DNA of 64,000 bases from Candidatus Poribacteria bacterium (GCA_965215265.1 OZ244048.1:3008001-3072000), one strand, 5' to 3'. Shown: positions 14,896 to 21,227, counted from the stretch's first letter. Numbers and translations are program-made. Notes: generated by a model from the sequence alone, not told the origin.

Positions 14896-15370
14896 TTAAC
14901 GGTAATCCACAACTACTTGGAAAGAACATACCTATGCCTACACTCGACTTCAAAGGTAAGCAGTTCATCTATTCGCATCACCTCACCGTGCCTTTTCGCA
15001 CGTTGGAGGTGGATGCGGATAAATCATTAATGTCTATTACCCCCCCCCTTCTTCTAATTTGTTAAGTAGTAATCTTATCATTCACGGCGACAACCTGTAC
15101 GCCCTCAAGGCACTCCTGCCGCGTTATGCGGGCAAGATTAAGTGCATCTATATAGATCCGCCATACAACACCGGCAAAGAAAACTGGGTCTATAATGACA
15201 ACGTTAACAACCCACTCATGCAGGCGTGGCTTGAGAAAAATAGCCCCGTTGATGGTGAAGATTTAGAGCGACACGATAAATGGTTGTGTATGATGTGGCC
15301 CCGGCTGCATTTACTGCGTGAATTGCTCTCCGAAGATGGCGCGATTTTTATCTCTATTGATGATAACGAA
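14896..15370 (+). repeat. Direct repeat: upstream region and N-terminal part of mod1 (second copy 16785-17259)
   Basis: Near-identical sequence at offset 1889, from TTAACGGTAATCC to the DDNE codons. Confidence 0.95.
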
Positions 15371-16651
15371 CAACACCGTTTGCGAATGCTGCTGGATGGA
15401 ATTTTTGGCGGAGACAATTTCATTACTAACATTGCGGTAGTTTCAAACTTAGCAGGCAGTAGCGATCAATTTGGATTTGCGGGTGCTCATGAACACTGCT
15501 TGGTATATGCCCAAAATCGTAGTGAGGTGAGTTTAGGGCGTTTTTCCGTTGATGAAAATGCTCTTGAAAAATGGGAACAAGATGAAAAAGGGTATTACAA
15601 ACCGGAACTTTTACAAAGAGGTAGTTTAACCTATTCAGAGTCGATGCATTATCCTATTTTCGTAGGTCCGCAGGATAATATTGAAGTTACAGAAGACGAT
15701 AGCGAGCCTGTAGAGAACGGTCCTTTTATAACTGTATACCCAATTGTGCGTAATGGAAACGCGAATGCAACATGGAGATGGAGCAAGAAAAGAATATTGG
15801 ATAATCCTACTGATGTATTTGCTAAACGTCGTGACGACGGGAGCATCGCAATATATTCAAAGCAACGGCCCCAACTCGGAGACTTGCCTACTCAGAAACC
15901 TAAATCTGTATTCTACAAACCTGAGTACGGTAGTCGTGCTGGCGGACAAACGTTATCAGATATATTTTCTGAATCTACCCAGAAGTTTCCCTACCCAAAA
16001 GCGATTTCTTTGATAACAGACTTGTTACGAATTGGTGCACCGAACTCTGGGGACATTATTCTCGACTCCTTCGCCGGTAGTGGTACCACCGCGCACGCTG
16101 TGCTCGCCCTCAACAAAGAAGATGGTGGCAACCGGAAGTTTATCCTCGTTGAATGCGAAGATTATGCCGACACCATCACGGCTGAACGGGTGAGACGGGT
16201 GATGAACGGCGTTGAGGCAGCTAAAGACGAGACGTTGCGTCAAGGCCTCGGCGGTTCCTTTACTTACTGCACCCTCGGTGAGGCGATTGATACAGAGCGG
16301 ATGCTCACGGGAGATAATTTGCCCTCTTATGAGGCCTTGGCGAATTATGTCGCTTACGTCGCCACCGGCAACTCGCTTCCAACTGTTGTGCATCGGAAGG
16401 ATTTCTTTTTCGGAGAAACTGAGAATCTCCTCTTCTATCTGATTTACGAACCGAGTCTTAAATTTTTAGAGAGCAACCGGTCTGCACTAAACGAGAAACG
16501 TGCAGTGCAGATAGCCAAGCGCTGCGAGACAACGGGTAAAAGGGCGTACGTCTATGCGGCACAGAAGTTTATGAGTCAGAAAGAGTTGACACCGCTGGAT
16601 ATTACGTTTTGTCAGCTGCCGTATAGCATTCATCAACTTCCTGAAGGGTAA
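14934..16651 (+). CDS. mod: Type III restriction-modification methyltransferase Mod, allele 1, frameshifted at a C9 tract
   Basis: MPTLDFKGKQFIYSHHLTVPF from ATG 14934 stops at 15065; NLIIHGDN, IYIDPPYNTG and ILDSFAGSGTT continue in the -1 frame; one extra C gives a 572-aa ORF. Confidence 0.9.
15040..15048 (+). repeat. C9 homopolymer at the mod1 frameshift (candidate phase-variation tract)
   Basis: ATTA-CCCCCCCCC-TTCTTC lies where the two reading frames must be joined. Confidence 0.85.
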
Positions 16652-16653
16652 AA
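16052..16653 (+). repeat. Direct repeat: C-terminal part of mod1 (second copy 17980-18581)
   Basis: Near-identical with scattered SNPs at offset 1928, from DIILDSFAG to the stop. Confidence 0.95.
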
Positions 16654-18579: not shown

Positions 18580-18581
18580 AA

Positions 18582-21227
18582 ATGGAACTGAAAGATTACC
18601 AACAAGAGGCGTTGGATACGTTAGAGACATATTTAGCGGCATTGAAGGATGCGCGGAAAGCGGCCGATGAACTCGCTGCTGTTAACATCGCAGAATTTCC
18701 AGAAGTTGTGAGAGAGTCGATGGCAGTGGCAGTGAAAGAGGCGGCGGATTATCCGCGCGTTGCATGGGAAAAATTACGAGAAGAAGCCGTGTTACCGGGC
18801 GTTCCGGACAAAAAAGGAGCAGATAAGATTCCGGAGTACATTGCGCGCGAAGCCGCCTCCGGTGAACCGATTCCGCACGTCTGTCTGAAAGTGCCGACCG
18901 GTGGGGGGAAGACGTTGTTGGGTGTAGAGGCGGTGCGTCGCTTGAAACTCGGCACCGGGTTTGTGCTATGGCTCGTACCGACGAAAGCCATCTACACACA
19001 AACGTGGGCGGCTTTTCGGAATCGTGAGCATCCGTATCGGCAAATTCTGGAGCTTGCGTCAGGAGGCAGGGTCAAACTTCTCCAAAAGGATGATAGATTC
19101 ACTAAGCAAGACGTTGAGGATTATCTGTGTGTGATGCTCCTGATGCTGCCTGCGGCGAACCGGCAGCGGAATAAGGAATTCCTCAAAATGTTCCGCGATA
19201 GCAGCGGCTATGCGTCGTTTTTTCCGATTGAAGACGCTGTTTGGGAACATCAAGGGTTATTGGAGACGCATCCGGACCTTGAGAGAACGGTGGAGGGTGA
19301 GCCGGGGCAGATCGGTGGGGTGCTCGCCGCGAATCCGGTGGACAGGCAGATTAAGCAGAGCCTATTCAATGTGCTGAAGCTGCTGCGTCCGACGGTGGTT
19401 TTAGATGAGGCACATAAAGCTTACGGGAGCAAGCAGGCAAAGAATAACCAGGAATTCGTGGCGGTGGTGAATCGTCTCAATCCGCGCTTTGTGCTGGAGC
19501 TTTCTGCCACTCCGCAGCTCGGCATCAGCAACATTCTCGTCAATATCTCTGGTGTTGCGCTAAAAGACGAAGAGATGATTAAGCTGCCGATTCACCTGCG
19601 TAATTTCGAGAATTCGGATTGGAAGTATACACTCGCCCAGGCGAAGGCAGAGCGGGATAGGCTTGAGGAGAAGGCGGAGCAGCTGCAAGCAGTGGAAAAC
19701 CGCTATATCCGTCCTATCGCCGTGATCCGCGTAGATCGCACCGGCAAAAATCAACGGGACGGCATAAGGGTGCATGCCGAGGATGTGCGTGACGAGCTGA
19801 TCCACGGATTGGGCGTAGATGCCAACTATATTAAGGTGAAATCCTCAGAGCAGGATGAGCTGGCCGGAATTGACTTGCTGAGTCCTTTCTGTCCGGTGCG
19901 TTATATTATTACCAAGGATGCCTTAAAGGAGGGATGGGATTGCCCGTTCGCTGCTCTACTGGTTCTGCTTGATAACACAACCGCGTCGACAGCGATGACG
20001 CAGCTCGTTGGCCGGGTGATGCGGCAACCGCATGCACGGGCGACGCTATTTCCTGAATTGGATAGTTGCTACATCTACTGCTTCAATCAGAAGGTCGGGG
20101 CGGCAGTGAAAAATGTCAAAAAGGGGTTAGAGGCAGAGGGGTTAACAGGACTTGCCGAATTTGTTGATGATCCAGAGGCGGAAGGTGTGCGGCGCAAGGT
20201 GCAACGCAGACCTGAATATCGCAGCTTGGATATTTTTCTGCCGCAGGTACTACATAAACAGGGGAACGGTTGGCGAGCACTTGATTATGAACGCGATATC
20301 CGCAGTGCGATTAACTGGGCGCTTCTCGATGCTGTCAAACCGGTCCGACTCGGGGCTCAAGCGGACAGCCGAGAGATTCGTGCGACTATCCATCTTCAAG
20401 ACGAAGCCGTCATCGAGAAGCCGGCTTCAGAAAATCTTGATATGGAATTAGAGCTCGATTTTTTCGTTCGTCGCCTGGGCGATATGATTCCGAATCCGTG
20501 GCAAGCCGCCCGTATTGTCAAGGCCACTCTGCAGCAATACCAGCAACAGGGCATCGACGAGAAAACGTTGTTCATGAATCGGCTCTATCTCTCTGAAGTC
20601 CTGAAGAATAAACTCCGGGAACGGATTGAAAGTTTAGCCGAGGCTGTTTTCCGAGAGAAGCTCCGCAGTGACAAGGTTCGGTTTAATCTGCAAACGGATG
20701 CCGCGCTAAACTACGAATTAGAAAAGACGATTGAGGTGATTGTCTCTAAAGAAGAAAAACCGCTAACCCGTTCACACGGGACTGCGTTGCAATTAAACCT
20801 GTTCAGCCCAGTCTTTGAGGGTGAGTTCAATAATTTAGAGCAAGATTTTGCGCTCTATTTAGACGAAAAAGGGGCGATTCAGTGGTGGCATCGCATCGCT
20901 GCTAAGCAGGGCTATTTTTTGCAAGGGTGGCGTCGGGAACGTGTGTATCCGGATTTCGTAGCGTGTGTGCAAGGTGAGAAAGATGGAACGCAGCGGCTGC
21001 TGCTGTTAGAGACGAAAGGTTTGCAACTCAAAGGCAACGCGGATACGACGTATAAACAGGAGCTGCTCAAGACGTTGGAGAGTGCCTATCGGACTGCCAC
21101 GGTGCATGGCACTATGGATGTCGTCCATCCTACTCACAAAACGATATCGTTCCGGATGCTGTTTGAGGATTCGTGGTGTGAGAAGTTGAATGAGACGATC
21201 GATGAGAGTTATGCGGCTGCGGAGTAG
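18582..21227 (+). CDS. res: Type III restriction endonuclease Res subunit (SF2 helicase + PD-(D/E)XK nuclease)
   Basis: ELKDYQ Q-motif, VPTGGGKT Walker A, VLDEAH, ELSATP, EGWDCP, QLVGRVMR, YPDF...LLETKG; starts 2 nt after the mod2 stop. Confidence 0.9.
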   Translation: MELKDYQQEALDTLETYLAALKDARKAADELAAVNIAEFPEVVRESMAVAVKEAADYPRVAWEKLREEAVLPGVPDKKGADKIPEYIAREAASGEPIPHVCLKVPTGGGKTLLGVEAVRRLKLGTGFVLWLVPTKAIYTQTWAAFRNREHPYRQILELASGGRVKLLQKDDRFTKQDVEDYLCVMLLMLPAANRQRNKEFLKMFRDSSGYASFFPIEDAVWEHQGLLETHPDLERTVEGEPGQIGGVLAANPVDRQIKQSLFNVLKLLRPTVVLDEAHKAYGSKQAKNNQEFVAVVNRLNPRFVLELSATPQLGISNILVNISGVALKDEEMIKLPIHLRNFENSDWKYTLAQAKAERDRLEEKAEQLQAVENRYIRPIAVIRVDRTGKNQRDGIRVHAEDVRDELIHGLGVDANYIKVKSSEQDELAGIDLLSPFCPVRYIITKDALKEGWDCPFAALLVLLDNTTASTAMTQLVGRVMRQPHARATLFPELDSCYIYCFNQKVGAAVKNVKKGLEAEGLTGLAEFVDDPEAEGVRRKVQRRPEYRSLDIFLPQVLHKQGNGWRALDYERDIRSAINWALLDAVKPVRLGAQADSREIRATIHLQDEAVIEKPASENLDMELELDFFVRRLGDMIPNPWQAARIVKATLQQYQQQGIDEKTLFMNRLYLSEVLKNKLRERIESLAEAVFREKLRSDKVRFNLQTDAALNYELEKTIEVIVSKEEKPLTRSHGTALQLNLFSPVFEGEFNNLEQDFALYLDEKGAIQWWHRIAAKQGYFLQGWRRERVYPDFVACVQGEKDGTQRLLLLETKGLQLKGNADTTYKQELLKTLESAYRTATVHGTMDVVHPTHKTISFRMLFEDSWCEKLNETIDESYAAAE

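Follow-up and report, generated by a model that had tools for sequence, protein, structure and literature searches.

Two type III mod genes in tandem, each with a C9 tract, beside a single res in a Candidatus Poribacteria genome

Restriction-modification (R-M) loci of type III in which several methyltransferase genes (mod) stand beside one restriction gene (res) have been described in mycoplasmas. According to the available part of one report, the Mbo45ORF167P (Mbo45V) system of Mycoplasma bovis PG45 comprises one res and three mods in tandem, every one with an AG repeat of its own; the repeat length in mod1 from genomic DNA would stop translation early, and a similar M. pulmonis cluster is cited there (bioRxiv 10.64898/2026.05.01.722158). 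In M. hyorhinis SK76, as far as the accessible text of its description goes, tandem mod1, split mod2 and mod3 lie beside res1, with an AG repeat in mod1 and repeats at the points at which mod2 and mod3 are split (PMC13736764). In a broader survey, the available sections of which are relied on throughout, repeats are recorded in 17.4% of type III mods with up to 4 phasevarions per genome; a mononucleotide tract is regarded as phase-variable from 9 or more bases, and the cited switching rate of 9-base mononucleotide tracts is 1.8-13.5 x 10^-3 (PMC5909438). The present work concerns a locus of this kind in a stretch of 64,000 nucleotides from a Candidatus Poribacteria bacterium (GCA_965215265.1 OZ244048.1:3008001-3072000; this whole stretch is called the window), where two type III mod genes in tandem, each interrupted by a run of nine cytosines (C9), are followed by a single intact res. 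A first-pass annotation made from the sequence alone had placed these genes at coordinates which the open reading frame list and the sequence confirmed. It had also taken the tandem, doubly gated layout to be undescribed, a claim which the M. bovis and M. hyorhinis loci contradict: to judge from the accessible text of those reports, a tandem multi-mod, one-res layout with a tract in each mod is already known in mycoplasmas.

Anatomy and origin of the locus

Both mod genes lie on the forward strand and are built alike. The first, mod1, starts at ATG 14934 with a leader of 35 codons (14934-15038), the conserved N-terminal part of Mod, and its C9 tract (15040-15048) puts the core at +2 with respect to the leader. 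Open over 530 aa, the core frame (15059-16651) holds DPPY, the target-recognition domain TRD1 (15371-16051), FAGSG and the C-terminal domain. The leader of mod2 (ATG 16823; 35 codons, 16823-16927) is likewise followed by a C9 tract (16929-16937) and by an open core frame of 543 aa (16948-18579) with TRD2 at 17260-17979. In both genes translation in the leader frame ends after 43 residues, at the TAA (15063-15065 and 16952-16954) of a GTTAAGT motif which stands at 15061-15067 in mod1, 12 nt 3' of C9, and at 16950-16956 in mod2. A tract of C10 or C7 would fuse leader and core into a Mod1 of 572 aa and a Mod2 of 585 aa, and the earlier reading of both genes as broken at C9 with a shifted core was borne out in this respect. 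The two tracts are the only G/C runs of at least 7 in the 64-kb window, so that their placement exceeds chance, and both reach the length of 9 from which a mononucleotide tract is counted as phase-variable in the survey (PMC5909438, in the part available), in agreement with the first-pass view of them as simple repeats of the phase-variable kind. The res gene (18582-21227, forward strand), also correctly foreseen as single and intact, starts 2 nt past the mod2 stop and is open over 881 aa.

The assignment of the two proteins is based on motif order and on alignments. In both core frames DPPY (motif IV) lies N-terminal to FAGSG (motif I) with the TRD between them, and Pfam N6_N4_Mtase matches both cores (E 3.7e-30 and 2.6e-29), the match spanning the TRD gap. 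The Mod subunit of EcoP15I (4ZCF) is matched by Mod2 at E 6e-64 (residues 93-471) and by Mod1 at E 1.6e-41, the Mbo45V chain 7DSU is matched by Mod1 at E 1.5e-42, and 6K0W is a further solved Mod that was matched; none of the NCBIfam models reached its cut-off. By these sequence criteria mod1 and mod2 are beta-class type III Mods of the N6-adenine methyltransferase family, with the TRD between motifs IV and I as the first-pass annotation had it. In EcoP15I, according to the accessible part of its structural description, an N-terminal helical domain (NTD) intertwined in the dimer is followed by a methyltransferase (MTase) domain split by the TRD and then by a C-terminal domain (CTD); one Mod protomer reads the site while the other methylates, and the dimer is built from NTD helices and MTase domains (PMC4490356). 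Because the core aligns from EcoP15I residue 93 onward, we take the 35-codon leader, by inference, to be the counterpart of the NTD dimer helices, with the C run in the linker after them. Mixed Mod1-Mod2 dimers, which had been suggested earlier, are plausible by analogy, since the shared blocks include the dimer-forming parts of EcoP15I as given in that description (PMC4490356). The Res protein is matched by Pfam ResIII (E 1.2e-13) and DEAD (E 7e-8) and is an ATPase of superfamily 2 helicase type. No profile match covers its C-terminus, the NCBIfam type III endonuclease model giving 18.6 bits against a cut-off of 564, and a PD...ExK-like string was read by eye in the translation.

The ends of the two mods are near-identical and their centres unrelated, just as had been claimed. 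By blastn the 5' block (14896-15370 and 16785-17259) extends over 475 bp with 97.7% identity and the 3' block (16052-16654 and 17980-18582) over 603 bp with 96.5%, and no DNA match was given between the central segments of mod1 and mod2; compared as proteins, TRD1 and TRD2 are 22% identical (E 0.001), and the shared blocks of Mod1 and Mod2 96-100% identical. TRD2 is 69-77% identical to the TRDs of three other Poribacteria loci (L009, L010 and L038). The repeat unit has 1889 bp, is arranged head-to-tail and extends 278 bp into res. It opens with a 38-bp upstream segment at 14896-14933, copied at 16785-16822 before mod2 (boundaries from blastn, junction read), and at the junction of the units res position 18859 is joined to the equivalent of base 14896. 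Between the mods a res remnant of 130 bp is left (16655-16784), a copy of res 18730-18859 with 95.4% identity and without the res start; 147-148 bp at the start of the res copy (18583-18729) were lost after the duplication. This remnant shows that a tandem duplication took place with the 1889-bp unit.

Codon differences between mod1 and mod2 (synonymous:non-synonymous) number 3:0, 6:2 and 11:8 in leader, N block and C block respectively, altogether 20 synonymous against 10 non-synonymous over 339 shared codons, in contrast to the remnant, which differs from res by 1 synonymous and 4 non-synonymous changes. Because synonymous changes outnumber non-synonymous ones in the mods, unlike in the remnant, both genes look maintained, leaders included. 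The ends are probably kept alike by gene conversion.

Part of the stretch is contained in seven independent sequencing runs, four of which (X1, X4, X5 and X8) were aligned. In X1, which comes from another study, a contig of 13,735 bases with depth 50 covers 14800-15262 and resumes at 17152, omitting exactly 1889 bases, and depth is zero over 15348-17128, TRD1 included. The X1 population has a single mod, the centre of which is TRD2-like and partly diverged. The same contig carries an 88-base patch in TRD2 (17597-17686) of equal length and diverged sequence, which hints at mosaic TRD variation between populations. In X4 depth was 40.1 over TRD1 and 33.7-40.3 over TRD2, in X5 17 and 22.1 respectively, and both runs are covered over the inter-mod bins 16581-16854; pieces bridging the junction were not among the matches listed. 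In raw-read run X8 the matches were partial throughout and belonged to other organisms, and the run is uninformative on tract length.

The surroundings of the locus can be described briefly. A scan of 14400-21700 gave 4 sigma-70 promoter sites and 7 intrinsic-terminator sites against 8.2 and 7.5 expected from shuffles, none above chance, with no intrinsic terminator between mod1 and mod2; Rfam at E up to 1 returned over 14000-22000 two matches only, both at chance level; and GC content over 11-26 kb shows no clear foreign island. Directly after res, on the reverse strand (21408-23093), lies a DUF5131 gene which weakly matches radical SAM mobile pair protein A and pairs with the gene of a three-Cys-motif partner protein TcmP (TIGR04474, E 2.6e-61). 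This pair and the R-M locus make up a small island amid metabolic genes.

Related loci and G/C runs across the genome

The genome is one contig of 4.83 Mb (G000:C1) and has five further multi-mod type III loci, in all of which the mod ends are 84-99% alike and the centres unrelated. They comprise a mod-mod-res locus with no runs (2.984-2.990 Mb), a mod(G8)-mod(G8)-res locus (1.288-1.294 Mb), a mod(G9)-mod-mod(G9)-res locus (3.696-3.704 Mb), a pair of G9 mods (3.122-3.126 Mb) and another pair of mods (2.003-2.008 Mb). At the two loci with G9 runs (3695639-3704083 and 3122555-3126038) the run is situated inside a conserved LNK..GG stretch after motif I and leads at once to a stop; there CTTAAC of the motif encodes Leu-Asn of that stretch.

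Relatives were scanned with one genome per species, and 79 related loci with 84 mod copies were found, mostly in Candidatus Poribacteria and for the rest in sponge-type Dehalococcoidia, Nitrospirales and others. In 70 of the 84 copies the leader is, by tblastn, in frame with the core and tract-free, which indicates that the leader belongs to the Mod protein. Eleven copies, found in records of Poribacteria, Nitrospirales and Dehalococcoidia, contain between leader and core a G/C run of 8-28 (G8, G9, G10, two C9, two C10, two C11, C16 and C28); two of these are in frame and nine shifted, five at shift 2 and four at shift 1. Among the 72 tract-free copies with a leader two are shifted, and one of the 84 has no leader within reach. 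On this distribution, runs have arisen or spread at one leader-core linker in several phyla. Two or three mods occur at 4 of the 79 loci, and in a search with the N block (E 1e-20 or better) tandem mod pairs within 2 kb were found in this genome and one other among 26 related genomes. The layout itself, which the first-pass annotation had recommended seeking in related genomes, recurs for example in L088, one of the four loci with two or three mods, when it is extended to its full length in a Dehalococcoidia record from a sponge-symbiont set (G026:C1:1824000-1843900, reverse strand): there five tandem mods are followed by one res and the post-leader runs are C11, C8, C11, C10 and C11, with two mods in frame and three out. 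The L088 runs are followed by GTTCTAA, not by GTTAAGT. In the same-genus genome G001 no ortholog of the locus was found, and identity to the nearest relatives is about 70-76%, too low for tract lengths to be compared closely.

G/C runs of at least 8 number 100 in the genome and concentrate at lengths 8 (44 runs) and 9 (46), with 4 at length 10. For 26 of the 41 methyltransferase-like gene clusters a run is found no more than 400 nt away, 27 runs in all, and the gene classes with runs, as identified by Pfam on representatives, are type ISP, MmeI-type, Eco57I-type, several N6_N4 architectures, and leucine-rich repeat (LRR) proteins with a lamin-tail domain. Four paralogous type ISP R-M genes of about 1610 aa (905173, 1462078, 3160206 and 3432067) have a C-run module 253 nt upstream of the start and outside any long frame; their gating may be transcriptional, not translational. 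The LRR and lamin-tail family has a C8 or C9 run at codons 6-8, straight after an MKRRM start, at 13 loci (e.g. 1567109, 3458649, 4031936 and 4595153). Six of these 13 same-start paralogs are open (five with C8, one with C9) and seven broken, and in copies with identical flanks C8 means open and C9 broken, which implies that a one-base change of length toggles genes in this genome, at least between paralogs. As for longer runs in relatives (G001-G025), C/G runs of at least 9 number 52 here, 44, 35, 33 and 28 in four family members, 0-1 in four members of one genus and 1-7 in other families, differences to which assembly fragmentation may contribute.

The motif found at both mod tracts is a frequent companion of such runs. 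On the C strand TTAAG follows the run within 25-30 nt (at 7-18 nt) in 53 of the 100 cases, the background being 1.3%, and the reverse complement CTTAA follows in 1 of 100. The consensus from one representative of each of 26 flank families consists of the C run, TTnATATnTG and TTAAGT. A pattern of C8, N5-18 and GTTAAGT was found in 10 of the 15 other genomes from the family, against 0 of 10 from other families, with a reversed control of 0 everywhere; one family member has 33 long runs and no such motif. Intergenic motif-bearing modules, by reading, point towards the co-directional downstream gene, and in intragenic runs the C strand is sense in 21 and antisense in 13. It can be imagined that the two C9 runs are instances of a portable switch module with a strand orientation, about 30 bp long (A, C8-11, the AT-rich spacer TTnATATnTG, TTAAGT). 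On this view the motif's constant place on the C strand, whatever the gene orientation, and its conservation across genera would point to a dedicated cis element, perhaps with a trans factor, which sets how the runs mutate or are read; the runs would then form a lineage-wide programmed contingency system in an uncultured symbiont instead of chance repeats. The proposed sites number more than 50 and comprise the type III mods, positions upstream of type ISP, Eco57I-type (type IIG) and other N6_N4 genes, and LRR signal-peptide codons. We offer this proposal tentatively and consider it rather unlikely as it stands.

Some other roles of GTTAAGT were considered and rejected. As a general -10 promoter element it has 409 sites genome-wide, like related 7-mers, and -35-like spacing is inconsistent by eye; likeness to an Xer/dif-like arm is resemblance only, and that candidate was dropped. 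As part of a frameshift-stimulating hairpin it would need the ACTTAAC stem, present by eye in some relatives' modules and not in most here. A tie to replication direction showed by eye no pattern with genome position.

Proposed phase variation and its alternatives

The interpretation which we favour, at a probability of about 0.62, is phase variation of each Mod at the DNA level, together with gain and loss of the whole unit by recombination. A type III mod would have been duplicated in tandem with the first part of res, and the copies would have come to hold different TRDs. At C9 neither full-length Mod would be made, and restriction would be silent as well, because type III Res needs Mod to find DNA. 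Slippage to C10 or C7 would turn the Mod concerned on, giving its methylation specificity and, with Res, restriction, and recombination between the direct repeats could remove or add a whole mod unit. Both runs would belong to a genome-wide set of hypermutable G/C tracts gating many R-M genes and surface-type LRR proteins. It would follow from this interpretation that switching takes place within the population, that the two switches are independent and allow the four states named in the first-pass annotation (none, TRD1, TRD2 or both), that the two Mods have different target motifs and that mixed dimers may form. In its favour speak, as good indirect evidence, the linker runs in 11 of the 84 homologous copies and the LRR paralogs that are open at C8 and broken at C9; the in-frame leader of most homologs, the mod arrays elsewhere, the maintained look of both copies, the unit missing from X1 and the published rate for 9-base tracts agree with it as well.

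Several observations weigh against this interpretation. No change of tract length was seen: the contigs with the 5' block from X4, X5 and X1 (three runs, two studies) are gap-free and carry C9, so that the variation of tract length on which the switching proposed in the first-pass annotation depends was not met with, in contigs which lose rare variants on assembly and to that extent limit what X1, X4 and X5 can tell of tract length. C9 is common to mod1 and mod2, which are 2.3% diverged there, and to the single-mod contig of X1, with 8 differences over 463 bases, and this suggests a constancy exceeding what a freely drifting tract would give. The frame is shifted in both copies here and in nine of the 11 homologs that bear a tract, a majority which fits decay or slippage decoding at the RNA level too. 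Finally, the conserved GTTAAGT beside the tract is unexplained by simple slipped-strand switching.

The same constancy would be expected if C9 were a fixed, functional state, with full-length Mod made by transcriptional slippage or by -1 ribosomal slippage on CCC codons, so that expression is low and constant and no on/off switch exists in DNA. The identity of C9 in mod1, mod2 and the diverged single-mod X1 contig agrees with such a mechanism, as do the out-of-frame homologs just mentioned, the concentration of the genome's G/C runs at 8 and 9 with a fall at 10, and a leader which has only synonymous differences despite being out of frame with the core. The hybrid of RNA and DNA inside RNA polymerase likewise spans about nine bases. 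However, the shifted homologs would need different corrections, five being at shift 2 and four at shift 1; some tracts are in frame, with lengths of 8-28 as for mutable tracts; and among the LRR paralogs some are open and some broken in the DNA itself. RNA folding 3' of the C9 run gave no significant structure (z -1.29; 20 of 200 shuffles fold equally well). On balance a fixed C9 read by RNA-level or ribosomal slippage seems doubtful to us.

It could be argued instead that the R-M system is silenced and decaying, its frameshifts inactivating and its tandem copy a relic, since both mods are broken in all contigs examined, the remnant between them carries the 1:4 ratio given above and many R-M genes of the genome are split at runs. 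Nevertheless, apart from the run the cores are open over their 530 and 543 codons and res over 881, the shared codons show the excess of synonymous changes already noted, and in 9 of 11 shifted homologs the break occurs at a G/C run in a single linker position, unlike random decay; for the present locus decay is therefore judged improbable. That two strain alleles were mis-joined as a tandem, or the homopolymer mis-called by one base, is very improbable: the relatives are metagenome-assembled records and the X1 population is single-mod, but TRD1 and TRD2 have similar depth in X4 and X5 with the inter-mod bins covered in both, the remnant and the exact 1889-bp unit fit a true duplication, the architecture recurs at five other loci here and in other genomes, and gap-free C9 occurs in contigs of three runs from two studies.

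Significance and comparison with described systems

Phase-variable methyltransferases in the literature covered are mostly from small-genome pathogens, and here the same logic would hold, far more extensively, in an uncultured sponge symbiont with a large genome. If DNA-level phase variation is true, tandem arrays of Mods with different targets, each under a switch of its own and ahead of one Res, would allow many states of restriction and methylation within one clonal population, a matter of consequence for phage defence and for gene flow in the sponge microbiome, which is dense and rich in phage. Symbionts of several phyla have this mod family too, with runs placed at the same linker, and as both switches fall within a 4-kb span they can be phased on single accurate long reads. 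No paper tying Poribacteria or sponge symbionts to phase-variable R-M was found in the literature search, supplements lying outside it.

With EcoP15I (Mod2Res1), the structural prototype, the locus shares the beta-class Mod with NTD, MTase, TRD and CTD (PMC4490356, as far as its accessible text goes); the EcoP15I system has a single mod without a repeat tract. Duplicated hsdS systems of type I resemble the locus in having several specificity modules and one restriction machinery at one locus, and differ in that specificity is switched there by recombination between the copies, according to the part of the source available (PMC7394358), while here whole mods are directly repeated and each is gated by a frameshift tract.

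The surveyed phase-variable mods share with the locus a G/C mononucleotide run within the gene and a conserved backbone that carries many TRD alleles. They form separate mod gene groups, however, and their alleles differ between strains and do not stand side by side on one chromosome; no tandem mod pair was found in the available sections of the survey. The up to 4 phasevarions per genome recorded there contrast with the 26 of 41 methyltransferase-like clusters near a G/C run of at least 8 here (PMC5909438).

The Mycoplasma loci are a close parallel, since in the reports as accessible they too have tandem mods beside one res, each mod with a frame-breaking repeat and the Mods alike outside the TRD. 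In those loci the repeats are AG dinucleotides encoding Arg-Glu, whereas here a C homopolymer is placed in the leader-core linker; the mycoplasmas are small-genome animal pathogens, whereas the present host is a sponge symbiont of 4.8 Mb; and here, unlike in the mycoplasmas, mod ends of 96-98% identity and a res remnant mark a recent duplication. Beyond a layout already familiar from mycoplasmas, it is the extent of tract gating among the R-M genes of this genome, and the conserved motif that flanks the runs, that merit follow-up.

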